From contig QZJF01000005.1 in the NCBI GenBank assembly GCA_003599255.1, forward strand, positions 32,985 through 96,984: a stretch of DNA of 64,000 nucleotides. Direction: 5' to 3'. The position numbers and the translations under genes were made by a program. How positions within the stretch are numbered: the first letter of the stretch is position 1; each line of letters opens with the position of its first letter. Below, piece by piece: positions 4,523 to 57,303 of this stretch. Source of the DNA: a candidate division WWE3 bacterium. Lineage in GTDB: Bacteria; Patescibacteriota; WWE3; UBA101185; UBA10185. Below the pieces are notes generated by a model. That model was not told where the DNA came from. It did not search any database and worked only from the letters and a program-made list of their open reading frames with translations.

Positions 4523-4948
4523 TTACTTCAATTCTACTTTAGCGCCTGCTTCTTCTAGTTTCTTCTTGGCGTTATCTGCGTCCTCTTTCTTTGCACCTTC
4601 CAGAATTGCCTTGGGGGCCGATTCTACAAGATTTTTTGCTTCTACAAGACCCAGTGCAGGATTGATTTCCCTTACTGCCTTGATAACGGCGATTTTATTG
4701 TCACCGGCGGCTGCTAAAACTACGTCAAACTCTGTCTTTTCTTCCTGGGGTTCTGCGGCTTCACCGTTGCCTGCTGCTGCCGGCATTGCACCCATCATCA
4801 TAGGAGCGGCTGCTGTTACCCCAAATTTCTCTTCGAGAGCTTTGACCAAGTCATTAAGTTCAAGTACGGTCATTTCGCCGACTAATTCCATGACTTTTTC
4901 TGCGTTTTTGCTTAACTTTACTTCTTTTTCGTCTGCCATATCTAACAC
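4523..4948 (-). CDS. rplL: 50S ribosomal protein L7/L12
   Basis: [41 protein letters not shown], an Ala/Met/Pro hinge, then ...[57 protein letters not shown]. This is an unambiguous L12. Confidence 0.95.
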
Positions 4949-4969
4949 CTCCTTTAAATATCTTATAAA

Positions 4970-5500
4970 TTATTCGTTTTTGCTGTCAGCAATTGCCGAT
5001 AGGGCGTAAACAAATTTTCTCTGCACACCCGAGAAAGTGCTGACAATACCATTGATAGGTGATTTAAGGCCGCCTACAACCTGTGCAATCAATTGTTCTC
5101 TACCGGGTAGTTTGCTTATAACTTCCACTTCATCTGCGGTGCTGTATCTACCCTCGAATATTGCCGATTTAACCTTAGGTAACTCTAATTTGTTTATGTA
5201 ATCAAAGATGATCTTTATTGGTTTTACCGGGTCGCTGTACGCGAAGATTAGCGCAGTGGGACCCTCAAGATCCTTATTTAACTCTTCATTGCCCATTTTC
5301 TTCTCGTCCAGTGCCACCTTTACAAGGGTGTTTTTGATAACTTCAAGCTCTGCATCGTTTTCTTTTAATGTCTGTCTAAGTTCACCCAGATCGGATGCCT
5401 TAAGCCCAATATAGTCAGCAAAAGTTACTGCTCTGGCTTTTTCAAGTTTTTGTTTAATTTCGTCTACTATTTCTTTGTTTTTTTCTTTTATGGTTTGCAT
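4970..5500 (-). CDS. rplJ: 50S ribosomal protein L10
   Basis: 176 aa protein immediately upstream of rplL. AVTFADYIGLKASDLGELRQTLKE and the C-terminal L12-binding helix region are typical of L10. Confidence 0.9.
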   Translation of the reverse strand: MQTIKEKNKEIVDEIKQKLEKARAVTFADYIGLKASDLGELRQTLKENDAELEVIKNTLVKVALDEKKMGNEELNKDLEGPTALIFAYSDPVKPIKIIFDYINKLELPKVKSAIFEGRYSTADEVEVISKLPGREQLIAQVVGGLKSPINGIVSTFSGVQRKFVYALSAIADSKNE

Positions 5501-5752
5501 AAATTTTTAGTGAATATGCTATTGTTGCCGGAAATAGGCAACAAAGCACATTCTCTCCCGGGTAAAAAAATACCCACCAAAGACGGTGAGTATAAAACAG
5601 TTATGTCATTGCTAGAGCGATTAATTAAAATTGCATAGACTCATAGAATGACTTTGTTTACCTCGGCAAGATAATTAAGCTTGTCCGTTAGGGAGCAGCC
5701 CTTGCTGTCTTTGGTACAGATGCAAGTTTACTAGAATACCGCCCGTTGTCAA
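5501..5752 (-). promoter_or_regulatory. rplJ promoter and about 215-nt leader (candidate L10 autoregulatory leader)
   Basis: Read on the minus strand: TTGACA at 5752–5747 (revcomp TGTCAA on plus), a 16-nt spacer, then TAAACT at 5730–5725 (revcomp AGTTTA). This begins about 20 nt after the stop of giant gene 1. The long leader contains a perfect 8-bp hairpin TTGTTGCC-GGAAATA-GGCAACAA (5521–5544) about 20 nt before the rplJ ATG. Confidence 0.35.
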
Positions 5753-5770
5753 TAAGACACTTATATTGTT

Positions 5771-8700
5771 TTAATAACCGAAATTGACACTACCGGCGTT
5801 AAAGTCGGTTCTGATTTGGTCTGCGGTAAGAGGGTAGTTGTAAACTTTAACCTCGTCTACCAGTCCGTTAAAGAAATTTTGAGTAGTATTTAATGCCCCA
5901 ATAGTAAAAGGGGAAGTACTATCAAATATTGAACTAGGACATGTACCGGAGACAGAGGTAAATTGAGCTCGTCCATCGATATATACAATTGGGGTACTTG
6001 CATCGTAGGTAAAAGCAACATGATGCCAGTTTCCTACAACTAGCGGTGTTGTGGTTGTTGTAACCGTGCAACTAGTACCGGTGAAAGGGGCACCGTTGTC
6101 ATCGAGTAAAATGGCTACTCCGCCAAAGGGGTTAATATCAACAGAGTATGATACCTGATTGCCTCCTGCCACCCATTTGCCTATAATGCTTGCATATTCG
6201 AGGACCGTTGGATTAATCCAAGCAGTAATGGATCCCTTGGTGGTTATATCAAAAACGCTGTTATCAGTAACACTAACGTAATCATCGGTTCCGTCAAAAG
6301 CCAGTGACCCGTTTCTTTTACCGGAGGCACCATTGTACCAGGCATCTGAAGCTGACCCCGAACAAGTCCCTGCGGAGCTATGACTTCCGGATCCCCCGAT
6401 TGTAATTGTGCCATTATTGCCTCCGGACTCGTTGTTGGAAGTTCTCGAGGTATCGTTAGCTATGTCACCGCTGCATTCGTCCAATTTAAATTCCGCGACA
6501 GGTGCTCCTCTGTTGTATTCCCAAGCGATTTGTGCCGCAGTTCGAGGGTAGTTGTAGATTCTAACATCATCAAGTGTTCCGTTCAGTAAATTTGTTGAGG
6601 CTGCCTGAGCTCCAAGCAATACAGTAACGGCATTGGAGGAGGTTGTTGCGGGAATAGTACCGCTGAGAGTTAAAGCTTGTTCTTTTCCGTTGAGATAAAA
6701 CTTGAGCCTACTGGATGTTGCAAGGGAACCGTCGTATACCATGGTCCAAAGGTTCCATGTATCGGTTGTAAGTATATCGCCGGTAGTATAGCCATAGGCA
6801 GCACTTCCGTTGCTTAAGTACAGGACAACGTCATTGTTTCCACTTCCAACAGCTCCGGAACCGGCTTGCATTATTGTTCTGGCCGTGGAGTTTTGCGTTT
6901 TCGAGAAAACTGTAGCAAGGTCGGTGAGTGAATTCTGCTTTACCCATGCGGATACAGTGAATTGGGAAACACCGTCCAAATCATCGAGATCTGCAGTCGA
7001 AATGTATCCGGAAGAACCATCAAATTCGACAGCAGCTCCGATTTTACCCACCGTCCAGCTTGTTCCGGTTTGCAACGTGCCATTCTCGTTTCCGCTGTGT
7101 TCCTGCGCAATATTACTTGCTGTTGTACCTGTATTGTCATCAAGGGGCCAATGTGATATGGGGGCGGAACACGTATCAGAGCTTCCCGGCACACACATAC
7201 TTCTGCTGTCTGAGTAACTAGGTGAACCGGCGGCATCTGTTGATACTGCTCCCCAGGAAGCTGATTTCGCTCTATTAAATAGAAGTTTAATTTGGTCCGA
7301 GGTCAAAGCTGTGTCGTAGAAGGCAGTTTCGTCAATATTTCCGTTAAACTCATCTCCGTTGTCGGTTGCATCAAGGTCGCCAATTATCAGATTTGTGGCA
7401 CCGTCAAGTGAGGTTGTGGCGGAAATTGTAGTGTCGGAGTTTTGGAGTACTCCGTCCACATAAATATCTATTCGGGATGTTAAGGTTTTAACTGCTGTAA
7501 CCATGTGCCATTGGTTGTCGTAAAAATTGCGTGAGGTAGTAGCAGTGTCGTCCGGATTACATGTTGTATCGTCGTCTATTCCAAAGACCAGTTGCCCCGA
7601 AGTATTGAAATACAAAACATATCCTTTTGAGCCGGCAACACATCCTCGTCCTGCCAGATATTCGATAGACGCAGGGGCTGTAGAGGAAGACGACTTTACC
7701 CACATGTTTATGGTAAAACTTCCGGTTCCGAATGAGAATATTCCACTGGTGCTGACAGCCTTGTAAATTCCTGCCACATTATATGCTTTTCCGAATTTTC
7801 CTTCATTAGTCCAGTAACTACCGCTGGCCAAGTTATTCAAATTTAAATCCGCACTGTTTATACTTTCGTCGTAGGCAAGATTCCCGGTTCCCTCATCAAA
7901 TTTCCAATAGGCTATTGCAGATCCTACTGGAGAGCCGGGGACAGGGTGCCCGGCATTCATATCCTCAATTACTTGTGTAGATGTTCTGTCGTAATTATAA
8001 ATTTTAACTTCATCGACAGCTCCGGGCACGTAAGTTGTGTTGGCCCGGCCGATGTAGATATCCGATCCTGAGCCATCGGTTGCCGCTCCGGAAGGAGTCT
8101 GATTTTCCGTAATGGATTGCTTTACCCCGTTTATATAAATGGAAGGGTCATTGCTTGTAGAAGAAGCGTCGTAAGATACGGATATATGTGTCCAGGTTTC
8201 TTTTGGTATGTTGTATCCGGTGGTCCACTCTCCGGACACTGTCGCTCTGTCATAAGTAAAATCAATCCTCATATTATCTCCAGACTGGTCCGTATACCAC
8301 GTTCCTGCACCAGCTCCTAATATTGCCCTCGAGTTGGTATCTCCAAAATCATCCAATTTTACCCATGCAGATACCGTGCCGTTTGTGTAGTAGACGCTAT
8401 CAATTGTTGAGCCGCTTCCCACATTGATGTAGTCAGTACTTCCGTTTAGATCCAGCGCGTTTCCAAATTTACCGTTAATCCAACTCGGTGTGCCGTTTAG
8501 CGTTCCTGTATTTGAGTTTCCGCTGCTATCATAGGCAGTTGCTCCTGTTCCTTCGTCCATTTTCCAATGTCCGACAGGTCCCGGAGCCCAAAGGTATAAT
8601 TGATTTACCTCCCTTTGTGAAAGTAATCTGTTGTATACACGGACCTCATCAAGATTCCCAAGGAAAGTATCAGATGTGGAAGCGGAAAGTGAACCGATAA

Positions 8701-11700
8701 TTAAATCAGTAGTGTTTGCTACAGATCCGGTATTTCCAAAGGCTTCGTTGTCTAACAAGCCATCTATATAGATACGATGACTGCCTGTGGATTTTTCCCT
8801 GGTTAAAACCACATGGTGCCAAACTCCGTCATTGACGTCAGTGGCAGAAATAGCTGTAGTGCACGCACTACCGGATGTCCAAAAGTACACATTTCCGGAC
8901 CTGACATTTGCAAACCAATCCGACACACCGCTGCCGCAGCCTCCTAGGTCTTTGCTTATGAAGCTGTCATTAACAATATTCGTGTTGTTGGTAGTTGTGT
9001 TCATCCATAAGGAGACGGTAAAATCATCACCAAAATTTAAAGCAGAGGTTTGTGTTACAGAGATGTAATCTCCGGTTCCGTCATTGGATGTACCACGTCC
9101 ATGCTTACCAGATGTTGCCCCCACATTTCCGGCCCATGCTCCGTCATGGTTATTTCCGGAACTATCACAGGAATCATTTACACCTCCGGTACACGAGTCT
9201 GCCGCACTCTCATTCATTTTCCAATAACCTACCAGTCCATCTGTAGCAACATCATTATTAATATTTCCAAAATTTACCCCTGCTTGCGTTCCCAGTAAGT
9301 CCGTTGCTATTTGGTCTGCAGTTCTTTCGTAAGGATAAAAGACCAGCTCGTCTAAAGTTCCGGCCCAGGGATTTGATGTGGCATCACTGTCAATGCCTAC
9401 GTATAAATTACTATTAGAATCCATTGTCCCTGTTGAAACAATAGAAGTTTTGGAGTTGATCAAGACGCCGTCCATATAAATGTAAATAGTTGAAGTCCCG
9501 CTTTTTACAGCGGAGAAGTGGTGCCAGGTCGAGTCTGCGTAACTGCCATAAGTTGAAGTTGTACAAACCTCGTCATCGGGACTCCACGTTGAATCGTCAT
9601 CTACAGCAAAACATACATAACCGCTTGAGTTCATATAAATTTTGTATCCAGATGTGCCATATCTGGCCAGAATAGTATCTGTGCCCGATACTGTGGACGG
9701 GTGTCTAAACCATCCGGAAATTGTGAACGATGTGGTGCCAAAATTAAAATCACTATCTGCGTCCCTGTACAGATAGTCGTCTGTACCGTCAAATAGCAGA
9801 CTCAACGCGGTAATTCCTGTCTGACTTATGTTTGTGCGCTGCCATGTGGCTCCGGAAATGGTCAAGTCATTTTCATAAGTTGTGGAGTCGTGAGCTATAC
9901 TGCCATAGCCTTCATCAAAGTGCCATGTTGCAACGGGTTTTTGCCCCTTACCTGCAGGGAAGTAATCCACTTCGTATTGCACCTCAAATGAAACTAATCC
10001 GGCGTGGTAAGTATCTGTAACTTCAGCTTGGGAAAGTGCATCATCATAAATTCTCAGATCCGAAATGTGTGTATTTGAATGCGCAGCGTTAGTTTTATCT
10101 TGTCCTAAATAGAAGTTACCGGCTGATAGGGTAGGCGCGGAAAATGATCCACCGGTACCTGCGGCTGAGTCAACATAGATATCAAGCCCAGTTCCGGCAC
10201 TCCAGGTAGCTACAATGTGGTGCCATCCATGTTTGGTCCACGATGCCGTACTGCTTGTAGCAGAATTAGTCCCATCAGTGATTGCGATATTGTTTCCAGT
10301 TGTTTTATAGAGCTTTAGTGTTCCTGCAGATGTGTCGGCATCAAGAATTGTATGCTCAACTCCATCGTCGCCGTCCCATTCGGGATTTATCCAAACGCTT
10401 ATACTTCCTGCTGCGTCATCAATATTTGTGGAGGTTGTATAGTCAAGATCCGCTGCTGCCCTTGAGCTTGATGATTCATTTATTGTCCCGCTCCAAGTAT
10501 ATCCGGTGCCCAAGCTACCGTCCGCATAGGTTGTTGGTGCGGATTTTTCTTCCAGTACAAAGCCATCCACATAGAGGGTCTCTCCATCCGGAAGCCACAC
10601 ACCGTAATCTGCGGCCGATGCTGTACCGGTCCCGGTGTATGATAATCTCCACCATCCGCCGCCTACATTTTCGTATGTAGTGGAGCTTTGCGCGGTGCCC
10701 TGCCATACAGCTTGTGCCACCGTGTTGTCTATGGTTCCTCCTACATTTCCTGCAGTTCCTCGATATACATAAAAGGAAAATGTGTGCGTGTTGGTGTTCC
10801 CGGCATTTGTACTATGGACCAATGATGTGGCCGAACCTGCCGCCACTATTTTTGTGCTTCGGGAACCGAATTTTACATATGGTGCGCTGGTTTCTATTGT
10901 TTTAGTCAAATATTCAGGGGATTCAATTGCTGCAGCCAAAAACTTTTTACCAGATGCGGCCACGTTAGTGTAATTAGTTGTCCATCCGCTCGCAGTATCC
11001 ATAGAAACAAATGTGCCCGTGATACCGGTGGTTCCATCATCATTAGGCAAATTAACCGCTTGGTCGTCTGATAAAGTTTGGGCATTTACGGGAGATACTC
11101 CATCTTCATACGCCCAGTTGTTTGAGTAAGATTCGTTTGGATCAAAGACACTAAATCCAAAAGCTCCTGCGTTACCATCAGCGTAAGGAGTGTTCACTGC
11201 TTCTGTCATATTCTCCACTTGAAACACAAATTGTGGTGTAAATCCGGGGGCGGTTTCCGCATAATTACCGGTTGAGGTTGGAGTTGTATGAGTCCCAACC
11301 CAGGAGCTGGAAGAACTTACATCCAATGCAAGATAAAAGAAAGTGGCATTTGATGCTCCACCTGATCTTGTCGTGATAGTGAACCCGCTGGAGTCAAAAG
11401 CACTGAGCTCCCCATACCACACCAAATTTCCGTTTACCTGTGCACCGCCTACAATGCCTGTATCGATGTATCTGGTGGCCGGTGCTCCCTGGCTTGAAAT
11501 ATAAGTAAATCTGTTTGCCAATGCGTGTTGAGTTATTGTTGATCCGTTATATGTTGCCACCCCAAATGAGGAAAGATAAAATTGGGTACTTCCTACAGTA
11601 CCGTTAGTACCGAAAATTATGTCAGGCTGAAATCCCGGGGCAGTAATATCGAACGCGGAATCTTGAGTTGTTCCCAGACCCTGAGTTCCGGCATATGCCT

Positions 11701-13909
11701 GAAGTCCCGATCCTGCAAAAAGCACTACAGTTAGATGCCAGGCAGATGTAGGTGTAGTGGTCCAGTTAATTCTGACTCCGTTGGTTAAGAATTGAGTAAA
11801 TTCCGCAGTTCCAAGAGATGTTGTAGTTGAAGCAGTAGGGTCAATAATGTATACCGTTGCATCAGTACCGCCTCTTGCGTCGGTATTATCTGAGGTGAGA
11901 CCATTTTGTGTTTTAAATGCTGTGTACCATTCGTTTGTGGCTCCTGTAGCGGTGCCGTATGACATAGACACGCCGTCGGTTGCTGTATCGTCTACTGTTG
12001 TGGCAGTGGCAATAATCATTACGGCTTTAGGTGTGTTTCCACCTAAATTTGAATTTGTAATGTCCTGAGTTCCTCCGCCCGTGTTTGCGGTGGTTCTTGT
12101 CACTGCTATGACGGCACCCGAACCTGTACCCTCTACCCAGCCCGTGTCATAAGTTGTGTTTTCAAACGATGGGTTTTCTATCTTATTTGTAGTTGCTTCT
12201 TCGGTAAAAATGCCGTTGTGTGATGCAAAGGAATGTGAATGAACCCTGCCAAGATCGGGTGACAGTGTGTACAAATCACCGCTATCCCAATCGTTATCTG
12301 TACCTCCAGCAAGTGTGGCAGCGAGCGTGTTTGCGGTATTAGAAGTAATCACCCCATGTGACGCGTCCGTGGAATTTGAGAGAATGTATCCCACCCATTC
12401 ATTTGTTACCCACGACGCGTCGCTGTCTTCAAGAACAGATGAATTGCTCGTTCCCGTGTGGGAGCCAAATTCGGAAGGACCGTCGTGTCCAACAAATCCA
12501 ATAACGTAAACGCCGCCACTAAGTGTTGCGTGATTGTCATTGGCCGTTTCGTCAATAACTTTACCCGTCTGTCTTGAGTCATCTGCATCTTCGTCATAGT
12601 GATATAAGACATCGGTAAAAAAGTCATTGCTATGTGGAAAACCTGGTTCCACGAAATCCGATGTGTATCTAACGGTGTTTGAAATTCTAGTCTCGTCAAC
12701 TAGACCGGATAAATATGTATCCAAGGTTCCTGACGTGTTTTCTTTGGCACCAAGATAGAGCAGGGAAGCATTATCATCAATGGATGAGCCGGCTGATCCG
12801 ATTTGTACCGCGTCCTTTGTGCCGTTTACGTATAGGTCGATTGTCTGGGCGGATGCATCATAAACTCCTGCCACGTGATACCAGGCACTTTTTGTAATCG
12901 TAGTATTTGAGCCTGTTATTGTTACTACACTGGCAGATGTTCCGGCTGAAGAAACCGAGAATGCAAATTTGTTACCTGAGGTTACATACAATCTGTAGGA
13001 CCGGTCGTCGTTAGCGGTGGTCTCATCCCACTTTCCGATTATAGTCTGTTCGGCATCAAGGGCTCTGATTTTAACCCAAGTTTCAACAGTCAGGTCTCCG
13101 GTAACGGATAATGATGAACTGTCGGCAGCTGATGCGTAGTCATTAAAACCGTCAAACATAACTCCGCTTTTTAGGCCGGTGTATCTGAGAGATCCGCTCT
13201 CTGTATTTGCCGAAACGGAGCCACTGCCGTTTATACAGTCCGCTGTTCCTCTAAAAGGGCAGACAAATGTGGCAGTTGTCCCAGAAAAGTCAAATGCATC
13301 AACAGCTGTTGTAGTACGTGCACCTGCTTCTTTGTTTGAAAAGTATAAGTAATAGTCAGTTGTTGTTGAGCCGCTGTTAAGACCTGCCTGGAGCGGAAAA
13401 TATATCATTGTTGACTCACTTGTTGAACATGCACTGTTGTTTGGATATTCTAAATGGACAGACATCTCTGTGTTTGTTGAATCATTAGGTTGATACAATA
13501 CCCTGATATCGTCGCAATCCACCTGTGCTTTGCCTGAATCGTACAATTCTTTAGTATTTACTGATATTGCCACTGTTGTACTAGCTGCCAGGTTTTCCGA
13601 GCTTTGATTTGTAAGCGTAATTCTTTGTCTCTTTTCCCACTTGATGTGTCCCGGCGACCATAATGCTTCGACATCTTTTGAGTTTTTTAGCAAAATGAAG
13701 AAGAGAGGGATAAGTATAACCATTGTGCCTATGGCGAAGGGCACCAAGGGTCTTTTCCATTTTTTTATAAACTTAAAAGTTCTATCAAAAACCCCTAAAA
13801 GAAAATAACCCAGTTTGGTGACATATTTTGTAACCGGTCTTAGAAAAAAAAGGAATTTCGACGAAGTCCTTTTTAATATTTTTCTTATCTTTTCTTTGCT
13901 TTTTGCCAT
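5771..13909 (-). CDS. Giant surface protein 1 (2712 aa): basic N-tail, TM/extended signal peptide, shared juxtamembrane module, multiple LamG/ConA-like lectin domains
   Basis: Uninterrupted 8.1-kb ORF. The N-terminus has a K/R-rich tail, the hydrophobic stretch LVPFAIGTMVILIPLFFILL, then VEALWSP...WEKRQRITLTNQS...DCDDIRVLY, which resembles a DUF2341-like module. LamG (PF13385-type) signatures recur: LVDETRISNTVRYTSDF, LDEVRVYNRLLSQREV, VDEVKIYNYDRTSTQ, LDDVRIYNYPRTAAQI. The C-terminus is ...GSVNFGY. Confidence 0.85.
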   Translation of the reverse strand: MAKSKEKIRKILKRTSSKFLFFLRPVTKYVTKLGYFLLGVFDRTFKFIKKWKRPLVPFAIGTMVILIPLFFILLKNSKDVEALWSPGHIKWEKRQRITLTNQSSENLAASTTVAISVNTKELYDSGKAQVDCDDIRVLYQPNDSTNTEMSVHLEYPNNSACSTSESTMIYFPLQAGLNSGSTTTDYYLYFSNKEAGARTTTAVDAFDFSGTTATFVCPFRGTADCINGSGSVSANTESGSLRYTGLKSGVMFDGFNDYASAADSSSLSVTGDLTVETWVKIRALDAEQTIIGKWDETTANDDRSYRLYVTSGNKFAFSVSSAGTSASVVTITGSNTTITKSAWYHVAGVYDASAQTIDLYVNGTKDAVQIGSAGSSIDDNASLLYLGAKENTSGTLDTYLSGLVDETRISNTVRYTSDFVEPGFPHSNDFFTDVLYHYDEDADDSRQTGKVIDETANDNHATLSGGVYVIGFVGHDGPSEFGSHTGTSNSSVLEDSDASWVTNEWVGYILSNSTDASHGVITSNTANTLAATLAGGTDNDWDSGDLYTLSPDLGRVHSHSFASHNGIFTEEATTNKIENPSFENTTYDTGWVEGTGSGAVIAVTRTTANTGGGTQDITNSNLGGNTPKAVMIIATATTVDDTATDGVSMSYGTATGATNEWYTAFKTQNGLTSDNTDARGGTDATVYIIDPTASTTTSLGTAEFTQFLTNGVRINWTTTPTSAWHLTVVLFAGSGLQAYAGTQGLGTTQDSAFDITAPGFQPDIIFGTNGTVGSTQFYLSSFGVATYNGSTITQHALANRFTYISSQGAPATRYIDTGIVGGAQVNGNLVWYGELSAFDSSGFTITTRSGGASNATFFYLALDVSSSSSWVGTHTTPTSTGNYAETAPGFTPQFVFQVENMTEAVNTPYADGNAGAFGFSVFDPNESYSNNWAYEDGVSPVNAQTLSDDQAVNLPNDDGTTGITGTFVSMDTASGWTTNYTNVAASGKKFLAAAIESPEYLTKTIETSAPYVKFGSRSTKIVAAGSATSLVHSTNAGNTNTHTFSFYVYRGTAGNVGGTIDNTVAQAVWQGTAQSSTTYENVGGGWWRLSYTGTGTASAADYGVWLPDGETLYVDGFVLEEKSAPTTYADGSLGTGYTWSGTINESSSSRAAADLDYTTSTNIDDAAGSISVWINPEWDGDDGVEHTILDADTSAGTLKLYKTTGNNIAITDGTNSATSSTASWTKHGWHHIVATWSAGTGLDIYVDSAAGTGGSFSAPTLSAGNFYLGQDKTNAAHSNTHISDLRIYDDALSQAEVTDTYHAGLVSFEVQYEVDYFPAGKGQKPVATWHFDEGYGSIAHDSTTYENDLTISGATWQRTNISQTGITALSLLFDGTDDYLYRDADSDFNFGTTSFTISGWFRHPSTVSGTDTILARYGTSGYKIYMNSSGYVCFAVDDDSTWSPDDEVCTTSTYGSYADSTWHHFSAVKSGTSTIYIYMDGVLINSKTSIVSTGTMDSNSNLYVGIDSDATSNPWAGTLDELVFYPYERTADQIATDLLGTQAGVNFGNINNDVATDGLVGYWKMNESAADSCTGGVNDSCDSSGNNHDGAWAGNVGATSGKHGRGTSNDGTGDYISVTQTSALNFGDDFTVSLWMNTTTNNTNIVNDSFISKDLGGCGSGVSDWFANVRSGNVYFWTSGSACTTAISATDVNDGVWHHVVLTREKSTGSHRIYIDGLLDNEAFGNTGSVANTTDLIIGSLSASTSDTFLGNLDEVRVYNRLLSQREVNQLYLWAPGPVGHWKMDEGTGATAYDSSGNSNTGTLNGTPSWINGKFGNALDLNGSTDYINVGSGSTIDSVYYTNGTVSAWVKLDDFGDTNSRAILGAGAGTWYTDQSGDNMRIDFTYDRATVSGEWTTGYNIPKETWTHISVSYDASSTSNDPSIYINGVKQSITENQTPSGAATDGSGSDIYIGRANTTYVPGAVDEVKIYNYDRTSTQVIEDMNAGHPVPGSPVGSAIAYWKFDEGTGNLAYDESINSADLNLNNLASGSYWTNEGKFGKAYNVAGIYKAVSTSGIFSFGTGSFTINMWVKSSSSTAPASIEYLAGRGCVAGSKGYVLYFNTSGQLVFGIDDDTTCNPDDTATTSRNFYDNQWHMVTAVKTLTSRIDIYVDGVLQNSDTTISATTSLDGATNLIIGDLDATDNGDEFNGNIDETAFYDTALTSDQIKLLFNRAKSASWGAVSTDAAGSPSYSDSRSMCVPGSSDTCSAPISHWPLDDNTGTTASNIAQEHSGNENGTLQTGTSWTVGKIGAAVEFDGSSGYISTADLDDLDGVSQFTVSAWVKQNSLTDLATVFSKTQNSTARTIMQAGSGAVGSGNNDVVLYLSNGSAAYGYTTGDILTTDTWNLWTMVYDGSLATSSRLKFYLNGKEQALTLSGTIPATTSSNAVTVLLGAQAASTNLLNGTLDDVRIYNYPRTAAQIAWEYNRGAPVAEFKLDECSGDIANDTSRTSNNESGGNNGTITIGGSGSHSSAGTCSGSASDAWYNGASGKRNGSLAFDGTDDYVSVTDNSVFDITTKGSITAWINPTVLEYASIIGKWVAGGNQVSYSVDINPFGGVAILLDDNGAPFTGTSCTVTTTTTPLVVGNWHHVAFTYDASTPIVYIDGRAQFTSVSGTCPSSIFDSTSPFTIGALNTTQNFFNGLVDEVKVYNYPLTADQIRTDFNAGSVNFGY

Positions 13910-13965
13910 TATATAAATTCTAATTTACTGTTTTGTTTAATCCACTAATCCCTGCTGTAGTTCGG

Positions 13966-16900
13966 TTAGTCAAACCTTACGGCTCCGTAATTTATGATAT
14001 CTCTAATTTGCTCCACGGTTAGTGCATAATTAAACACTCTTATATCGTCAACTTGACCATTCGTTCCGTTTGCGGCTGCCGGATTGGAAACCGCAAATAC
14101 TTCTGAGTTGCTAAGATCTTCTAGAGATGTGTCCGAGTAAGAATTATCCAAGCTTCCGTCGACGTATATAAAGTGTCTTGAGGTATCTCTTCCGAATACG
14201 ATGTGATGCCAGTTTCCATCCGCCAAATTCGCTCTGACCTGGGTGTCGACTATGCCGGCAACCGGCTCATCCATTCTTAAAAACCATCCGGATGTGGGAG
14301 TCCTTCGAAATTCATACCCGGCAGCAGCCGCGCCTCTTTTTGAAATCAGGAACTGAGTAGTGTCAGTATCATCGGCTTTCATCCAAAACGATATTGAGAA
14401 AGTTTGGTCTGCGCCAAAGTCAAATATGCCGCTGGACGGATCACCCATGGTTACGTAATCATCATCCCCGTCAAAACCTAGTGATGAGTTTATTTTTCCA
14501 GAGGTGCCATCATTCCACATTTCAGTAGAAGTTCCGGATCCGCAGGTACCCGCGGAAGTATTGCCACTGGCGCCGGGTGTAATTGTACCGTTGTTGCCAT
14601 TTCCACTAGAGTCATATGCAGTTGTTCCCGAACATTCGTCAAATTTCCACCAACCTATCGGGCTGCCCTTGTTATATTCCCACGCGACCTGGGCAGGGGA
14701 ACGCGCGTAATCATAAAGTGTGACGTTATCAATTATCCCGTTCCAGTAGAAAGTGGAATTTTGTTGACCTATTCTTGACTCTGCGGACCCTCCATTTAGA
14801 CTGTTTGTTGCGGAGAAATCTGTGTCACTTGCGAGTAATTTTCCGTCAATATAGAGACTTACCGTAGTTCCACTAAATACAAGTGTGGCCATGTGCATTT
14901 TTCCGTCACTAAGACTTGTCGTAGTGTCAGTTAGGGTCTGAGCGGCCCCTCCGGAATCACGATAATCTACGCTTAAATACCGGCCGGAGTTTCTGGTTCC
15001 AAAGCCGAATCTTACATCTGAATTTGATGTTCCGGTCAGCACAAACAGTCTGCTTATGCCCGTACCTATTGAGTTATCTTTTAGCCAAAAGTTAAGAGTT
15101 GCTGCTGTATCGGTAGAGACGTAAAAGTTGCTTGATGTGCCTACATTTATATAATCACTGGAACCGTCTAAAAGTAGGCAACTGCCGGATTTACATGAGC
15201 CTGCATGACTCCATGAAGGATCGCTCGAATCAGAACCGGAAGTTGTACCAAGAGTTCCGTTATTACCACTACCGCTTGTGTCATAGGGAACTTGTCCCGT
15301 CTTTTCATCAAATTTCCACTCAGCAATTGGAGAGGTACAAGCCGACCCCTGACCCGGAGGACAGTACTCATTAGCAGACGACCATGTTGGATTGTTAGAT
15401 GAGTTGGTTCCGGTTGACCCAAAGACGGATACCATGCCTGCGTTGTGGGAAGTTTTTACCTGATCATCTGTCAGTGCAAATTTATATATCTTTGTTGAGT
15501 CGAGAAAACCGTCATAAAAATCACCTGTCACTGTAGTTTTATATGCGCCCAGGGTATCGTAAGCAGTGGTCAGGGTGCCCGCAGTGTAAAGTGTGTTTGT
15601 AAATGTAACGGACTGCGTTGTGGATAATATTCCGTCAACATAAATTTTTATTTGGTCGTTTTGAAAGTCCAATATACCAACGATATGGTGCCATTCAGTT
15701 GGATCCGAAAGGGCAGCAGTAGCTGTTTCCAAAGTTTCAGCAGCAACGCTTCTTCCTGCCACTTCTACACTGTTATCTCCATAAACACTAAGCAAAGCAC
15801 CGGAATTTCCGTCAGCCACATGAAGGCTTATCATACGTCCTCTGGAAGTCCCACCGGGATATGTCTGTGGTTTCATCCATGTTTCAAGTGTAATTGCAGA
15901 GGCTCCGTCTAGCTCGGTGGTTACGGCTCCTACTCCAAAATCAACAATAGAGTCCGAACCGTTAAAGGATAGAGCTTTGCCAAACTTTCCGCTATTTGAC
16001 CATGTAGCAGATGTGATTGTACCGTCCAGATCCGCTCCGCCGTTTCCTGAGTTATGTGCTGTACTGCCGTAACCCTCATCAAGTTTCCAATGCCCTAAAG
16101 CCGAACCTACAGGAGATCCTGGAGCAGGGTGTCCTGCGTTCATATCTTCTATTATCTGAGCACGTGTACGAGCGTAGTTGTATATCCGCACATCGTCAAT
16201 TCCACCATTTTGCATTTCCGATGATGTATCCTCTTCGCCAATGGTTATGTTATCCGAGTTAGACGCATCAGTTGTGGAAATTGATGTATCTGAGCCGTAG
16301 AGTATCCCGTCCACATAAAGATACAACCCTGCCAAGCCCGTTTTGTCACCGTCTCTATCTAAGACACATGCGATATGATGCCATTGACCGTCGTTAATAC
16401 CGGCACCTATATTGTTAGCCGTATCAAAGTTTGTTCCGTCCCCGATATAACAGTTGACTGCGCCCGCACCTCCGCCCTCGGTGTAATAGACCGTATATCC
16501 CGGTGCGTTCAATGCATCAGAGAAGCCCTTGTTTATTAGCTTTGTGCCGGCCTCGCTTTGTGTGATACGTGTCCATAATGTGTATGTGAAATCACTAGTA
16601 TCGGTTAAATCCAATAAGCCACTGGCCGGATCGGATATTGTGGTTACATCTTGAGCACCGTCCTGTGATGCCAGCATCGCAGACCCATACTTACCGAGCC
16701 CCCATCCGCTATTTGATAAAGTTCCGTTGTTCCCGTTTCCGGATGTGTCATATACTGTTGTGCCGGTATTTTCGTTAAAATTCCAGTATCCCGCGGGACC
16801 GGGTGTCCAAGCATAAAGATTCTCCACCTCATCATGGCTAACGGGTCTGTTGTATATTCTCACTTCGTCAATTTTTCCGTCAAATCTTTCGTCCTGACCC

Positions 16901-47555: not shown

Positions 47556-47582
47556 TTTTTATCCTTTTCAAATGTTGTTATA

Positions 47583-47632
47583 AAAACATTTGATAATGTT
47601 TTAATGATATGAAACACAGGTTTATGTGTCAA
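47583..47632 (-). promoter_or_regulatory. Sigma70-like promoter of giant gene 4 with an overlapping palindromic operator-like element
   Basis: Read on the minus strand: TTGACA at 47632–47627, a 17-nt spacer, then TATCAT at 47609–47604. Just downstream lies AAAACATT-tgat-AATGTTTT (47583–47602), with a further inverted copy CAAATGTT at 47569–47576 between the predicted TSS and the RBS. Confidence 0.4.
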
Positions 47633-48335
47633 CACTTTTCGAAGGTTGGAATATGTTGTTGTTACAATATATAATGCCTGTCAATGTGTATTGATAAACG
47701 TGAATATTTTTTTTGTTGTTACAGCAATAAAAGATAACCTTTATTTTTAATATAAATTCCTGCAAAAATCGAGTAAACTTTGTCCGGAATTATTTGACCT
47801 GTGACTTTGAAAATTATTTAAAAAATATTGTAAATTTTGCGATACTGTTGTCATATATTTTCCTAGTGACTTCTTTTCTCTAAGTTTTTGTGTTTCGTTT
47901 GTCCGGTTAATTGATTTGTAAAAAATTTGAAACAGTTTTAAACTTAGATTTCAAAGGTCATTAATTTTAGACATAGATTTTCATATAACCATGCCTGGGT
48001 AAAAAAGTAGTTCATTTGTTAATCTTTTAGATATCTCAAGGATGCACTGCGAACTTACATATTTTCTATTTAACCCATGTAACTCTCAAGTTTACTTAAT
48101 ACTTTAAAAAATTTTTAATTTCTGTAGAATTTTATTAACGGCTTTTACCTTTAATCTACATTTTTTAATTACGGCTTATTGCTCGGACAGCGTAGTGAGT
48201 TAAGATCCAGCTTGACGTCAATGGAGATTATTATAATGACCGTTAGAGTAGTGATGTTTTTAATGTTTACCAAATGCCGTCGATACAGCATTTAACAATG
48301 TATATTTGTTTAAATATTCTGGTTGTATCGTGTAG

Positions 48336-49124
<789 letters not shown>

Positions 49125-49153
49125 ATGAGTTTTTAGTGTGATAAACTAATTTT

Positions 49154-49888
49154 ATGCAATTACTGCCCTTGGATTTAGCTGCATTCTTGTCAAAATATCT
49201 TTATCTGATAATCACTTTTGTGATGATTCAGGGTTCGTTGACTTTTGTACTTTTATTTTTATTCATAGATAAAATTACCAGCTCCAGAAAAGTTAAGACG
49301 CAGGAATTGCTGGCAAAACAGGACGCATATGAAGAATCCTTACGTATTCTAAACGATTCCAAAGCACAATCATCCAAGCTCATCCTTGCAGCGCAGGAGC
49401 AGTCTGCCAAAATAATTCAGGGGACAAATTTTCTCAATGATTCATTTAAAGAAAAATTTGCAGAAGAGTTAAAAAGTCTTGTAGATCGTCAGGAGAGCGT
49501 TTTCAAAAATGTTGCGGATGAATTATCCAAGCAATACCAACAGGCTTTTGAGCAGGAAAAGATAACGACGCTGAGCGAACTTACCAAGGTCTCCGATACT
49601 TTACGTTCCGATATGCTGACAAAAGTTGACGAATTTAAATCTGTGTTAGAAAAAAATACTGTGGAGGCAGAGACGGAACTTAAAGGGAGAATTCAACAGG
49701 ATTATGATGAACTTAGTAAAAGGATGAAAGAGTACGAAACCATAAAAATTCAGAAAATAGATGAGAAGATATTTCTTATACTTACCCAAGTTACTAAAGA
49801 CATATTAGGATCGGCTCTTACCATAAATGAACAGGAAGAACTGGTATTTAAGGTGCTAAGTGATGCAAAAGTTAGACAAGGTATCTGA
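49154..49888 (+). CDS. atpF: F-type ATP synthase subunit b-like (N-terminal TM helix plus long coiled coil)
   Basis: One N-terminal TM helix (YLYLIITFVMIQGSLTFVLLFLFI) is followed by about 200 aa of charged heptad-rich helix. The gene lies immediately upstream of delta and alpha. Confidence 0.55.
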   Translation: MQLLPLDLAAFLSKYLYLIITFVMIQGSLTFVLLFLFIDKITSSRKVKTQELLAKQDAYEESLRILNDSKAQSSKLILAAQEQSAKIIQGTNFLNDSFKEKFAEELKSLVDRQESVFKNVADELSKQYQQAFEQEKITTLSELTKVSDTLRSDMLTKVDEFKSVLEKNTVEAETELKGRIQQDYDELSKRMKEYETIKIQKIDEKIFLILTQVTKDILGSALTINEQEELVFKVLSDAKVRQGI

Positions 49889-50402
49889 TATGTACACTTT
49901 AGATTCCCAAACAAAGCAAATAATTCTGGATACTTTAATGACACAATCTGCTGCTTTCGAGCTAATTGAGGAATTGTCATATGCTAATTCATTACTATAC
50001 AAATCTGAGCCTGATAGCGAGTCTACTTATGGTAAAGCGGTAAACAATGTGAAATATTCTGACTTATTGAATCAACTTTTTGCATCCGATGTTCAATCGG
50101 TAAGCCGACCTGAGGAATTATCCAGATTTGTCGAGGAGATCCATAACTGGTTGAAGGATATCGAGCCGGTTAGATACACTGTAGCTTTTAAGCCCGGGAT
50201 GGAGTTTACAAAAAACATGTACAAATGGACAAAAGAAAATATAAGTGGTCAGCACTTAATTGAAATAGAGACAAAGTCTGAAATTATTGGAGGAGTTATC
50301 ATCTCTGCAAATGGACGATATCACGATTTTTCTCTTGAAAAGATTATCAACCAATATTTTTCCTTAAACAAAGATGCAATCTTATCAATACTACAAAAAT
50401 GA
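49860..50402 (+). CDS. atpH: F-type ATP synthase delta (OSCP)-like subunit
   Basis: 180 aa protein between the b and alpha genes. The call rests on size and position; sequence similarity is weak. Confidence 0.45.
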   Translation: MMQKLDKVSDMYTLDSQTKQIILDTLMTQSAAFELIEELSYANSLLYKSEPDSESTYGKAVNNVKYSDLLNQLFASDVQSVSRPEELSRFVEEIHNWLKDIEPVRYTVAFKPGMEFTKNMYKWTKENISGQHLIEIETKSEIIGGVIISANGRYHDFSLEKIINQYFSLNKDAILSILQK

Positions 50403-51870
50403 ATACAACAAATGTCTGGAACTAACGGGCGAGACAGGCTATGTTGAAAGCGTGGTGCCCCCGATAGTTTATATAAATGGTCTTCCCGGAGTTCGATTTG
50501 GGGAAGTGGTTTATTTTGAAACCGGAGAAATGGGAATTGTAATATCTCTCGATTCAGATAGCGCGGAAGTATTGCTTTTTTCACGAAATCCTATTGTGGT
50601 AGGAACCCAAGCCGCCCGATCCGGCATGCCTTTAAAAATGCCCGTGGGAGGGGAGTATGTCGGACATTCTATTGATCCACTTGGAAGAAGTACCAGCGAG
50701 TCGGTTTATATTCCCAGGCCAACGGAATATCGTATATTGGACCGTCCTGCCCCCGGTATAGATATGAGGGAGAAGATAACACAGAGTTTTGAGACGGGAG
50801 TCGCCGTTGTAGATTTAATGATACCTTTGGGTAAAGGACAACGTGAGTTAGTGCTCGGGGACAGAAAGACAGGTAAAACGGAATTTCTGATGCAAGTATT
50901 ATTAACCCAGGCTAAACAAGGCAGTATATGTATTTATACGGGCATAGGAAAGAAAAAAGTTGATATCAAAAGAGCGGAAGAATTCGTACTTCGTCATAAT
51001 TTGACTCAAAATACTATTATTCTTTCAACAAGTTCAACCGATCCTCTTGGCTTAATTTATATCACGCCGTATGCAGCAATGACCCTGGCAGAGTACTTTA
51101 GAGACCAGGGCAGGGACGTTTGTATTATATTGGACGATTTATCTACACACGCGAAATTCTATAGAGAAATTTCATTAATTGGCAAAAGATTTCCGGGAAG
51201 AAACTCGTATCCGGGAGATATTTTTTATGCCCATTCCCGCTTACTTGAAAGAGCAGGAAACTTTAGGACGCAGCACGGTGTTGGGTCCGTAACATGTTTG
51301 CCGGTTGCAGAAACAATAGAAAGTGATATTTCAGGGTATATACAGACAAATCTTATGTCAATTACTGACGGTCATGTGTACTTCGACCATGAATTGTTTG
51401 AACAAGGAAGAAGACCTTCAGTAAATTATTTTTTATCAGTAACTAGGGTTGGTAGACAGACCCAAAGTAAGGTCCGTTGGGGAATTAACAGAGAACTTAG
51501 TAGTTTCTTAACATTGTATGAAAAAACTCAGCGATTTATACACTTTGGAGCGGAACTTAATGAAGGAATTAAGTCAACACTAAGCATGGGAACAAGAATT
51601 TTAAATTTCTTTGATCAGCCCATGGGACATACGGTCGGCATGGACATTCAGATATTAATTTTTTGTTTAATTTGGATAGGAGCAATTCCTGAAGAAGATT
51701 CCGCAAGACTACAATATATTACTAGTAAGTGCATGACATTGTATGACAGTAATGAGCAATTTAAAGACTTAGTTGGTAAGTTAATAGATGAAAGTAACGA
51801 TTTTAATGTGTTACTTGGGCGTATTAGTAGTCAATCGAAGCAAATAATGGAAATTATCGATAAAGGTTAA
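50374..51870 (+). CDS. atpA: F-type ATP synthase alpha subunit
   Basis: The P-loop [10 protein letters not shown] matches alpha [19 protein letters not shown] matches [43 protein letters not shown] matches [34 protein letters not shown]. Confidence 0.85.
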   Translation: [498 protein letters not shown]

Positions 51871-51880
51871 ATGAAGTAAT

Positions 51881-52756
51881 ATGCAGAATAAGAAAGAATT
51901 ATTAGACGAAATAGCAACATTAACCAGCTTAAAAAACATAGTCGAGTCGTACGAAGAAATAGCTGCTTTAAGAATGAGAAAAGTTAAAAAATCTGTTCTT
52001 CAAAACAGAGAATTCTTAACCGGACTTGATGATTTATATCAAAGAGTTATGTTTACCTATAAGTCTTATATTGAGCAGAAAAAAACTGATAAAGACAAAA
52101 AAACATGGTTACCTCTTAACACTAATGGAAAGACTGTATCCGTATTAATATCTTCAAACACAGGATTATATGGCGAAATAATTAGGACATCGTTTGATTA
52201 TTTTATTGACAATATACGAAATAAAAGTACAGATGTTGTCATATGTGGAAGAATAGGCAAACAATTATATGATTCTCTTATTTCCACAGGAAACAGTTTA
52301 CCCGAGTATCAATTCTTTGACCTTCAGGATTCAGGTGTAAATCAAAATGAATTAAAGAAAATTCTTGATTTTATATTAAATTATTCAAATGTCGTAGTGT
52401 ATCATGGATTATATGTCAGTGTTTTGAGTCAGCAACCTACGGCAACTTTTGTTACAGGAAAAGCACTTGAAGTCCAGAGTGCAGATAAAGCAAACGAGTT
52501 GAAATGCATTATTGAGCCTTCTGTACTGGAAGTTACCGAATTCTTTGAAAAACAAATTTTGTCTTCAATTTTCGAACAATCAGTCTACGAAGCTAGTTTA
52601 AGTAAATTTGCATCCAGGATGGTCAGTTTAGATCTTGCCAACGAAAATATTTCGGAGCAAATAAAAAAAGTTAATTTTAAAAAGTTAAAAGTAAAGCACA
52701 ATGATGACAATCTTCAGCAAATAGAAAGGTTGTCCGGTATATCTTTGTGGTCTTAG
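51881..52756 (+). CDS. atpG: F-type ATP synthase gamma subunit
   Basis: 291 aa protein between alpha and beta. LKNIVESYEEIAALRMRKVKKSVLQNREF corresponds to the gamma N-terminal helix ([26 protein letters not shown]). Confidence 0.6.
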   Translation: MQNKKELLDEIATLTSLKNIVESYEEIAALRMRKVKKSVLQNREFLTGLDDLYQRVMFTYKSYIEQKKTDKDKKTWLPLNTNGKTVSVLISSNTGLYGEIIRTSFDYFIDNIRNKSTDVVICGRIGKQLYDSLISTGNSLPEYQFFDLQDSGVNQNELKKILDFILNYSNVVVYHGLYVSVLSQQPTATFVTGKALEVQSADKANELKCIIEPSVLEVTEFFEKQILSSIFEQSVYEASLSKFASRMVSLDLANENISEQIKKVNFKKLKVKHNDDNLQQIERLSGISLWS

Positions 52757-52765
52757 AATTAATAG

Positions 52766-54431
<1,666 letters not shown>

Positions 54432-54434
54432 CAA

Positions 54435-55088
54435 CTAGAGCTGATTTATGTCTACTAAGAACGATGGACCCATTGTTGAACATACATAAATGCTTTTGAT
54501 CCATTCAGCCTTTGCCTTGGCTGGTTTGTTCTGTTTTAGAGTGTTATACACTTCAAAAAAATTCTCTGTTAGTTGCTTATCGCTGAAGCTTTTCTTACCA
54601 ATGATAGTGTGAATAACGGGGGAGTCTTTCTCGGTCTTTATTTCAACTTTGCCCTTTTTAATCTGTTCTACGGCTGTTTGCACATCTTCAGTTACAGTAC
54701 CGGTCTTTGGGTTGGGCATTACACCCGCAGGTCCCAGTATTTTGGCTACTTTGGCTAATTTTGGCATGAATTTTGGCTCAGCAACTAATACTTCAAAGTC
54801 CACTTTAGGTCTTAATTTTCCTTTTTCAATGTTTTCGATGTCCGATTCACTAAGTTCAAGGTCAGCGTTGGTGACTTTTTTGGATGCTAACACGGCAACT
54901 TTTTTGGTTTTCCCTGTGCCATGGGGGAGTGTTGTAGAAAACCTCACCGACTGTTCTCCTGCCTTGGCATCCTTAATAAGATTAATATGAATCTCTATTG
55001 TTGAATCAAAAGCCGTCTTGGAAGTTTCCTGTGCTTTCTTAATGGCGGTTTCTACTGTATATAAATTCATATCTTTGTTTTTTTTCAT
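54435..55088 (-). CDS. rplA: 50S ribosomal protein L1
   Basis: 217 aa. FDSTIEIHINLIKDAKAGEQSVRFSTTLPHGTGKTKKVAVL is typical of L1, and the gene is directly downstream of rplK. Confidence 0.9.
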   Translation of the reverse strand: MKKNKDMNLYTVETAIKKAQETSKTAFDSTIEIHINLIKDAKAGEQSVRFSTTLPHGTGKTKKVAVLASKKVTNADLELSESDIENIEKGKLRPKVDFEVLVAEPKFMPKLAKVAKILGPAGVMPNPKTGTVTEDVQTAVEQIKKGKVEIKTEKDSPVIHTIIGKKSFSDKQLTENFFEVYNTLKQNKPAKAKAEWIKSIYVCSTMGPSFLVDINQL

Positions 55089-55093
55089 ATGTT

Positions 55094-55537
55094 TTATTTT
55101 TCAACCTCTACACCCATTGAACGGGCGATACCTGCAATAATTCTGCTTGCTTGACTCAGATCTTTTGTATTAAGATCCGGCATTTTGGCCTGAGCTATTT
55201 CTTCAATTTGTTTTTTTGTAAGTTTTCCGACTTTTTGCTTGTTGGGGACTGCAGAACCCTTGTCAATTTTCAGAGCCTTTTTAATCAAGTGGGATGCTAC
55301 CGGAGTCTTGGTTATAAAATTGAAGGATCTGTCTTCGTACACTGTAAGTATTACTGGAATGACGTCATCTCCCATTTGCGCAGTTTTAGCATTAAACTCT
55401 TTGCAGAAATCCATTATAGCTACACCATGTTGTCCAAGTGCGGGTCCGATCGGAGGTGCGGGGTTGGCTTTACCGGCTGGTATTGCCAACTTAACGATTG
55501 CTTTAATTTTCTTTCCTTTTTTTGGTTTTACTGCCAT
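55094..55537 (-). CDS. rplK: 50S ribosomal protein L11
   Basis: [52 protein letters not shown] is a canonical L11 N-terminal domain. Confidence 0.95.
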
Positions 55538-55549
55538 ATATTTTAATAA

Positions 55550-56155
55550 TTAAAGCCTGGAAATTTGTGTGAAATCCAATTCTACAGGCGTTTCTCTTCC
55601 AAAAACTGATACAAGGACCTTGACTTTGCCTTGTTCCTCGTTCACTTCGTCAACTTTGCCCAGGAAGTCCCTGAAAGGTCCGTCCGAAATTTTTACCGAA
55701 TCTCCTACAGAGAACTTGGCTTCAAACTTAGGAGCTTCCATTTTAGCAAATTTCATCAATGTTTTGACCTCTGACTCCGGAAGGGGAGTAGGTGCTGATC
55801 CCATGCCTACAAATCCGGTTACACCGGGAGTGGATCGTACAACATACCATGCGTCATCATCCATTATCATTTGCACCATAAGATATCCGGGAAAAAGTTT
55901 TTCTTCGGTAGACCTTTTCTTTCCCTCTGTAACAACTATTTTCTGTTGCTGAGGGATAAACATCTTAAAAATTCTGTCGGTAAAGCCTCCGATTTCAGCT
56001 CTTTGCTTAAGTGTAGCGGCAACTTTATTTTCATGCCCGGAATAGGTATGCACAACATACCATTTGGCTTCCAACGGTATATCGGAATTAACGATAATAA
56101 CGCCGTCTTCCTTAGTTATATCTTTATCTATTGTGTTACTTTTACTGTTTGCCAT
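55550..56155 (-). CDS. nusG: Transcription termination/antitermination factor NusG
   Basis: KWYVVHTYSGHENKV in the NGN domain and the C-terminal KOW GDSVKISDGPFRDFLGKVDEVNEEQGKVKVLVSVFGRETPVEL. The gene sits between secE and rplK. Confidence 0.9.
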   Translation of the reverse strand: MANSKSNTIDKDITKEDGVIIVNSDIPLEAKWYVVHTYSGHENKVAATLKQRAEIGGFTDRIFKMFIPQQQKIVVTEGKKRSTEEKLFPGYLMVQMIMDDDAWYVVRSTPGVTGFVGMGSAPTPLPESEVKTLMKFAKMEAPKFEAKFSVGDSVKISDGPFRDFLGKVDEVNEEQGKVKVLVSVFGRETPVELDFTQISRL

Positions 56156-56160
56156 AAAAA

Positions 56161-56343
56161 TTAACCAATTAGACCGGTAAGGATTTCTTTAAATATATAA
56201 TCAAATCCGGTCACGAACAAGCCAACGACTAAACTAACACCAATAACATAGGCAGTCAAGCGAATAGTCTCATCTCTTGAAGGCCACTTAATGCGTTTTA
56301 ACTCTTCATATGACTCTCTGACAAAGTTTACTACTCTATTCAC
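56161..56343 (-). CDS. secE: Preprotein translocase subunit SecE
   Basis: 60 aa with a single TM helix. VRESYEELKRIKWPSRDETIRLTAYVIGVSLVVGLFV is SecE-like, and the gene lies upstream of nusG. Confidence 0.85.
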   Translation of the reverse strand: MNRVVNFVRESYEELKRIKWPSRDETIRLTAYVIGVSLVVGLFVTGFDYIFKEILTGLIG

Positions 56344-56426
56344 GTAGTGGATTCTAGCATTTTTTTTGATTGCAGCAAAGACTTTCGGGCATTTTCCGGA
56401 GGTAATGTTATAATATTCCGAGCCTT

Positions 56427-57302: not shown

Positions 57303-57303
57303 A

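Follow-up and report, generated by a model that had tools for sequence, protein, structure and literature searches.

Is the division of the secE-nusG-rplK-rplA-rplJ-rplL gene cluster in an uncultured candidate division WWE3 (Katanobacteria, Patescibacteria) bacterium peculiar to one genome, and how could the genes on both sides of the breach remain properly expressed? The question is raised by a 64,000-nucleotide stretch of contig QZJF01000005.1 (assembly GCA_003599255.1, positions 32,985 to 96,984), called the window here, in which an operon for an F1-type ATPase and four giant genes stand between rplA and rplJ. The split is lineage-typical across much of WWE3 and is an ordinary inherited rearrangement. 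Very probably, an ancestor within WWE3 gained the block between rplA and rplJ, its descendants have inherited it since, and the break was tolerated at an operon boundary.

An earlier sequence-only reading of the window had placed all six genes of the cluster on the minus strand, and the open reading frame (ORF) map and Pfam matches agree: secE (56161-56343; PF00584, E=4e-18), nusG (55550-56155; NusG and KOW domains), rplK, encoding L11 (55094-55537; Ribosomal_L11_N and Ribosomal_L11), and rplA, encoding L1 (54435-55088; Ribosomal_L1, E=5e-44), which is the last gene of secE-nusG-rplKA, are followed at a distance by rplJ, encoding L10 (4970-5500; Ribosomal_L10), and rplL, encoding L7/L12 (Pfam match; ORF 4523-4948, with the likely true ATG at 4939 and AGGAGG ahead of it). 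The order along the strand is secE, nusG, rplK, rplA, then rplJ and rplL, and the rplJ product is 100% identical to an L10 recorded under 'candidate division WWE3 bacterium'. Between the rplA stop and the rplJ start lie 48,934 nt with 11 genes, so that rplJ is not found within about 1 kb of rplA. The ORF map and family searches also bear out the contents of the breach, namely the atp operon on the plus strand and the four giant genes on the minus strand. Equally, rplL stands without rpoB and rpoC after it: no RNA polymerase match was found among the ORFs of the window, and rplL is followed by a terminator and a GalT-like gene. The terminator scan identified at 4473-4498 a bidirectional intrinsic terminator (an 11-bp-stem hairpin with A and T runs on its flanks) common to rplL and the convergent GalT-like gene, which belongs with GH57 and GlgA to a group of plus-strand glycogen genes (397-4433; Pfam). 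Ten WWE3 loci likewise have rplL without rpoBC downstream. At the other end of the split cluster, genes for an M50 peptidase and FolD (56427-58131, plus strand) are divergent from secE. Both outer flanks are conserved in WWE3.

Searches with L10, L1 and the c-like protein encoded by the first gene of the ATPase operon gave the loci of relatives, and a scan of genome contigs with an L10 alignment gave 11 loci, a small survey of WWE3. On the rplA side the recurrent order is FolD-M50-secE-nusG-rplK-rplA, then a convergent atp operon and, divergent from it, a giant gene that begins with a MerR-type domain and ends with an S74 domain. This layout is present in a second assembly of the same organism (L013, 100% identical over 19.6 kb), in L014-L016 (L1 identity 74%; one contig of 853 kb), in the closed genome CP006914.1 of RAAC2_WWE3_1 (L017), in a 994-kb JGI contig, in a 925-kb contig (L100) and in L101. 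On the rplJ side the order is giant gene, L10 leader, rplJ, rplL and convergent GalT-GlgA-GH57, as found in L002, L003, L005, L006, L007, L009 and the JGI contig; a giant gene stands upstream of rplJ in nine loci. Both halves can be read on single contigs in two relatives. In the JGI contig, where the same 7185-amino acid (aa) gene was met in both look-ups, a gap of about 37.8 kb holds three giant genes; in JBPOHV010000001.1 the gap is about 35.1 kb by the coordinates of the records. In at least six other WWE3 lineages rplA is convergent with the atp operon, beyond which a MerR-type giant gene follows, and the site of the block is unchanged in lineages with only 45-62% identity in L10. The synteny check with close relatives thus removes the claim that the arrangement is unusual or novel: the same layout recurs in those lineages, including CP006914.1, and has been in public data since the genome paper of 2013, so that the window adds, at most, one more lineage to a known kind of rearrangement.

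Three loci lack the block or appear to lack it. In L011 a single ABC-transporter gene (8001-9746; 581 aa, with fused membrane and ATPase domains) stands between rplA and rplJ, and the outer flanks are those of the split loci, NrnA-FolD-M50-secE on one side and rplL-GalT-GlgA-GH57 on the other; within the lineage, the rplA/rplJ junction has taken different inserts. In L012, which comes from a more distant, GC-richer genome, the cluster is contiguous. L008 (4671-5310) looks contiguous with a 0.85-kb spacer, in which rplA is followed by 550 nt of AT-rich non-coding sequence and by an 87-N gap in the leader. No atpC follows rplA in L008, which may therefore represent a real recent loss, and it is not counted as a firm contiguous case. 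Downstream, L008 shares 83-89% nucleotide identity with L009, in which the end of a LamG giant gene lies upstream of rplJ (2900-3151). A neighbour-joining tree of L10 and L12 (322 columns, without support values) places L011 and L012 outside the clade of all giant-gene loci.

The rplJ-rplL pair carries what appears to be a complete set of control elements of its own. A promoter-like site, TTGACA-16-TAAACT, at 5752-5725 on the minus strand is conserved across WWE3 loci, and the stop codon of giant gene 1 is 19 nt upstream of its -35 hexamer. Overlapping this site is an L10 leader (RF00557; 5556-5732, minus strand), which scores 63.5 bits in Rfam against a gathering score of 44, matches the model over its full length (positions 1-138) and ends in the 5' untranslated region 55 nt ahead of the rplJ ATG. 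The leader holds the mimic of the L10(L12)4-binding site, ACCAAAGACAGCAAGG...CUUGCCGAGG, and, according to the terminator scan, a terminator/attenuator hairpin (5570-5593) followed by U7; it folds better than shuffled controls (minimum free energy z = -2.7). Scores above the Rfam gathering score were also obtained for the L10 leaders of five WWE3 relatives, and the failure of Rfam to detect one in L008 is due to the 87-N scaffold gap, which removes the 5' half.

In the alignment of 11 WWE3 regions upstream of rplJ, most loci conserve the -35 and -10 hexamers (TTGACA-N16/17-TAAACT), the ACCAAAGACAGCAAGG / CTTGCCGAGG motif and the ACTCACC...GGTGGGT-T7 hairpin, the exceptions being L006, whose attenuator is not conserved, L010, whose attenuator is truncated, and L008, in which the N gap hides the promoter and 5' part of the leader. 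Promoter, motif and attenuator are kept irrespective of the upstream neighbour, be it a giant gene, GalT, an ABC transporter or some other gene, which implies that the feedback control of rplJL would be independent of upstream context. The L10 leader class is moreover widespread across bacterial phyla (PMC3616713). The sequence-only reading had proposed that rplJ and rplL acquired a promoter and leader of their own; that they have their own is borne out, whereas their acquisition is contradicted by this conservation, and promoter and leader are best regarded as a predicted ancestral self-contained unit, not a newly acquired one. In Bacillus subtilis, the L10 leader mediates transcription termination promoted by L10(L12)4 (PMC4538822). 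By analogy, the WWE3 leader would work by attenuation, and binding of L10(L12)4 would repress rplJL.

The genes on the other side of the breach may likewise form one unit. The spacing of secE, nusG, rplK and rplA is only 5-12 nt and points to co-transcription. A promoter for secE was not identified, and no L1- or L11-type leader was found upstream of rplK or secE at a relaxed threshold. The stop codons of atpC and rplA are convergent and 3 nt apart (54429-54437), with no terminator between them. Given this spacing, the convergent atpC and rplA transcripts must overlap or collide; in relatives, the two stops are 52-56 nt apart.

How often bacteria in general break the cluster at this point was gauged in a control scan of metagenomes with an L1 alignment, which listed at least 80 unrelated bacterial loci (L1 39-47% identical; no WWE3 among those listed). 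The sample is not unbiased, and 64 of the listed loci had enough downstream sequence to judge. Among these listed matches, rplJ/rplL come directly after rplA in 51 (gaps of 0.03-0.7 kb), come after 1.9-5.6 kb in three, and are not found within the 1.9-10 kb available in ten, so that they do not directly follow rplA in 13 of the 64. The breach contains a pst-type phosphate transporter in L019 (10755-15826), an acyl-AMP ligase in L033 and a xylanase-like gene in L076; flagellar genes (FlgB, FliF, FliI) come after rplA in L052 (1635-7829), and L020 (10856-17934) has rpoB, and probably rpoC, immediately behind rplKA, without rplJL. L034 and L062 are further control loci with rplKA and rplJL separated. 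Mycobacterium tuberculosis and Mycoplasma genitalium are presumably further examples of rplKA separated from rplJL. A 2026 paper (PMC12993453) notes the separation in Bradyrhizobium diazoefficiens and Actinomyces israelii. At this junction, the phrase 'almost universally conserved', used of the cluster in the sequence-only reading, is thus overstated. The rplA/rplJ junction is a recurrent break point, as would be expected of a boundary between two units of transcription and regulation.

These observations are best accommodated by the following sequence of events. An ancestor of most of the sampled WWE3 lineages would have received the ATPase operon and the giant surface-protein operon between rplA and rplJ, while the outer flanks stayed in place, FolD-M50 by secE and GalT-GlgA-GH57 by rplL. 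The block would then have been inherited vertically, with variation in the number and size of the giant genes giving gaps of 35-49 kb. Such a break would be tolerated where it falls exactly between two autonomous expression units: rplJ-rplL would keep its near-consensus promoter, its L10(L12)4-binding leader with attenuator and its own terminator, and the stoichiometric feedback control of L10 and L12 would not depend on the upstream neighbour. Removing the block from the window restores the flank order of L011 and L008, as a single insertion between rplA and rplJ would predict. We infer that the block was gained and not lost at this site, and that this happened once.

Several points weigh against this history. 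Its polarity rests on the argument from a universal cluster and on the unsupported neighbour-joining tree of 322 columns; L008 appears contiguous although it is nested beside the split-type L009, which would mean a recent loss or move of the block or a wrong scaffold; and in L004 rplJL is further rearranged relative to its neighbours. The second assembly of the same organism, GCA_020059845.1, may share or relate to the same reads, which makes it not fully independent, and it misses the junction of giant gene 1 with rplJ. Operon boundaries, promoter use and attenuation are all predictions from sequence.

The nesting of L008 would favour the alternative that the split is ancestral for WWE3, or for a larger clade of the candidate phyla radiation, and that L008, L011 and L012 were re-joined after losing the block. 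If the L008 scaffold is correct, it suggests that the block can be lost. This alternative is nonetheless unlikely: contiguity is the general bacterial state (51 of the 64 control loci among the matches listed), the rough tree sets L011 and L012 apart from the clade of split loci, and a single insertion is a more parsimonious event than exact re-joining at one intergenic site.

The contents of the insert are more curious than the split itself: an F1-type ATPase operon with no gene for the a subunit and no ion-binding carboxylate in its c-like protein, paired across WWE3 with MerR-anchored giant fibre genes. Giant gene 4 (30279-47555, minus strand; 5758 aa; Pfam, hydropathy) encodes a cytoplasmic N-terminal MerR-type helix-turn-helix (HTH) domain (residues 29-77), one transmembrane (TM) helix (171-196), repeats that extend over about 5100 aa and a Peptidase_S74 intramolecular-chaperone domain about 355 residues before the C-terminus. 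Its product would join a DNA-binding domain, tethered to the membrane, to a surface protein resembling a tail fibre. The internal repeats of the gene are 1-2.5 kb long and 70-78% identical, and homologues of 4474-7185 aa are at the same place in other WWE3 genomes. The other three giant genes each encode a short basic N-terminus followed by one TM helix: giant gene 3 (23093-30307, minus strand; an ORF of 2404 aa, or about 2400 aa from the likely ATG at 30289) has eight Laminin_G_3 domains, giant gene 2 (13966-22929, minus strand; 2987 aa) has nine, and giant gene 1 (5771-13909, minus strand; 2712 aa) has eight. Read from its likely ATG, giant gene 3 shares about 11 nt with the end of giant gene 4, and the other gaps between giant genes are of 56 and 163 nt. 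The arrangement suggests that the four genes are one transcription unit of about 42 kb, ending 19 nt before the rplJ promoter.

Upstream of giant gene 4, the divergent intergenic region shared with the ATPase operon (47556-48344) contains a promoter-like site (47632-47604, minus strand; 11/12 match) and, just downstream of it, a 32-nt near-palindrome (TTTTCAAATGTTGTTA followed by TAAAAACATTTGATAA) at 47565-47596, 10 nt upstream of the giant gene 4 start codon. Conservation of the palindrome extends to L014 and L100 and, in part, to L017, and its role could be that of an operator recognised by the MerR-type domain or of a hairpin in the 5' untranslated region.

The F1-type ATPase operon (48345-54431, plus strand; NCBIfam and Pfam) begins with the gene for the c-like fusion protein of 259 aa (48345-49124), for which a profile match to c subunits in PDB has E=0.002, and continues with b-like (49154-49888), delta-like (49860-50402; a weak OSCP match), alpha (50374-51870; 411 bits, below its cutoff), gamma (51881-52756; a clear match), beta (52772-54163; 453 bits against a cutoff of 463) and epsilon (54135-54431; a clear match) genes, all on the plus strand. 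The F1 subunits alpha, beta, gamma and epsilon are thus all represented by NCBIfam and Pfam matches. For the a subunit, no ORF with multiple TM helices and no PF00119 match was found in 47556-54431, with a copy elsewhere in the genome being possible, and the gene was likewise not found in the homologous operons of six relatives. In proteins of the c-like family, a signal or TM segment is joined to a conserved ectodomain (about 150 residues) and to a two-helix hairpin at the C-terminus, which is the part that aligns with the c subunits in PDB. In the family profile (alignment A4), with 21 homologues compared for the residues of helix 2, the column of the ion-binding Glu/Asp is T or F and no conserved acidic residue was found in helix 2; Asn238 is invariant in the family, and the ion-binding carboxylate is absent.

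The operon is beside rplA also in L013, L014, L017, L100, L101 and the JGI contig, and it is divergently paired with a MerR-HTH giant gene in all six of the WWE3 lineages in which it was seen. A distant lineage (L098, 6835-16851; c-like protein 31% identical) has the same odd ATPase operon away from rplA, with a bAvd/23S_rRNA_IVP-type small gene between atpG and atpD. Preceding that operon are a 343-aa MerR-HTH fibre-like gene, a 532-aa gene with a weak K1-lyase_C match and a 1390-aa gene with a YadA head and collagen repeats. The MerR-HTH protein of L098 has the HTH alone in common with giant gene 4. A Falkowbacteria match to the c-like protein (P0329) was set aside, being partial and outside an ATPase operon, and so uninformative on linkage.

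The pairing invites the idea that the ATPase operon and the giant fibre genes are a functional module, in which the ATPase powers or regulates a giant surface apparatus for host attachment, and in which expression of the ATPase and the giant genes might be coupled through the MerR domain and the palindrome at 47565-47596. The gliding machinery of Mycoplasma mobile, with its F1-like motor and giant leg proteins, offers a loose analogy. The argument for such a module is that the adjacency is conserved, but within WWE3 inheritance alone could account for this, and MerR-HTH membrane proteins look common in WWE3 genomes, which weakens the argument further; a functional module is on balance quite improbable.

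The position of the giant genes upstream of rplJ and on the same strand suggested to the sequence-only reading that read-through could feed rplJL. In its functional form, this explanation holds that the giant genes are kept co-directional upstream of rplJL by selection, with read-through coupling the supply of L10 and L12 to the expression of the giant proteins. The terminator scan predicted no terminator between the giant gene 1 stop (5771) and the promoter and leader, and in five relatives about 8-72 nt separate the end of giant-gene homology from the Rfam leader match or promoter downstream. However, a near-consensus promoter is conserved in every locus, and L004, L010 and L011 keep promoter and leader with other genes upstream, two of which are on the opposite strand. 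Any read-through transcript from giant gene 1, which rplJL would not need, would carry the leader, and the same attenuator would terminate or gate it. A 42-kb giant-gene operon would also probably fall far short of the amount of mRNA that ribosomal proteins require. Selection for read-through is thus very unlikely to explain the arrangement.

Nor does the composition of the 49-kb block suggest a genomic island or mobile element acquired recently by this organism alone. The giant genes have a total G+C content of 45-46%, above the 36-41% of the flanks, and L011, L012 and apparently L008 lack the block. The difference in total G+C content is attributable to codon position 2 (0.48-0.52) of genes for G/T/S/A-rich proteins: at third codon positions the giant genes are at 0.38-0.42 and the other genes of the window at 0.27-0.46, and synonymous codon choice is near-identical. 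No tRNA gene was found in the window, no integrase or transposase among its annotated ORFs, and no flanking repeats of at least 8 nt at the borders of the block. Occupation of the same site in lineages with L10 proteins 45-62% identical implies that the event is old. Recent acquisition is accordingly a most improbable origin for the block.

The assembly itself is supported at the rplA end by GCA_020059845.1, a contig of which (L013) is 100% identical to window positions 44435-64000 over 19,566 bp, covering secE-rplA, the atp operon and the start of giant gene 4 before breaking about 3 kb further inside the repeats of that gene. These repeats can be assembled, being only 70-78% identical. The junction of giant gene 1 with rplJ is supported by synteny in WWE3, and not by a second assembly. 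That the split is an artefact of assembly or binning, in which repeat-rich giant genes joined two unrelated contigs, is scarcely credible: the internal repeats of giant gene 4, the break of the other assembly within them and the lack of any match in exact-sequence contig look-ups for the L10 and GalT-like proteins of the window would be in keeping with it, but the repeats are divergent rather than identical, codon usage is uniform across the window, two contigs of more than 900 kb carry both halves with order and orientation unchanged, the second assembly has an identical rplA/atpC junction, and both junctions recur in several WWE3 genomes, one of them closed. Recurrence of the junctions in WWE3, together with identity of the second assembly across rplA and the atp operon, means that the split is not a chimera.

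A self-contained L10-leader unit would suffice to make the break neutral, and no special mechanism is needed. The split can be used as a synteny marker for WWE3 genomes, which marker-gene contiguity checks will wrongly flag. More generally, it would be a clean case in nature of operon clusters that could be pulled apart because their feedback leaders are autonomous.

The best-known counterpart is the rif region of Escherichia coli and B. subtilis (rplKA; rplJL-rpoBC), in which rplJL likewise has its own promoter and a leader that mimics the L10 site of 23S rRNA, and with whose operon boundary the WWE3 break point coincides. The WWE3 match to RF00557 includes the terminator hairpin, as in the attenuation system of B. 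subtilis (PMC4538822). The differences are that the two units of the rif region are a few hundred nucleotides apart, as against 48.9 kb in the window; that rpoBC comes after rplL there and not in the window; and that secE-nusG-rplKA of the window seems to be one unit, in which an L1-binding leader was not detected.

Other bacteria with a split cluster share the rplA/rplJ junction and have lineage-specific inserts of their own, which in the three control loci listed with both halves are of 2-6 kb, whereas those of WWE3 are of 35-49 kb and consist of an ATPase operon and giant surface-protein genes. Within WWE3, the searched passages of Kantor et al. 2013 (PMC3812714) describe a glycogen operon and an ATP synthase operon with unrecognisable a, b and c membrane subunits, and these passages hold no comment on a split of the ribosomal-protein cluster. 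The genome of RAAC2_WWE3_1 (CP006914.1) has the same order as the window, FolD-M50-(secE)-nusG-rplK-rplA with a convergent atp operon and a divergent giant gene running from MerR to S74, and differs in the size of the first giant gene product, which is of 4474 aa in RAAC2_WWE3_1 and 5758 aa in the window.

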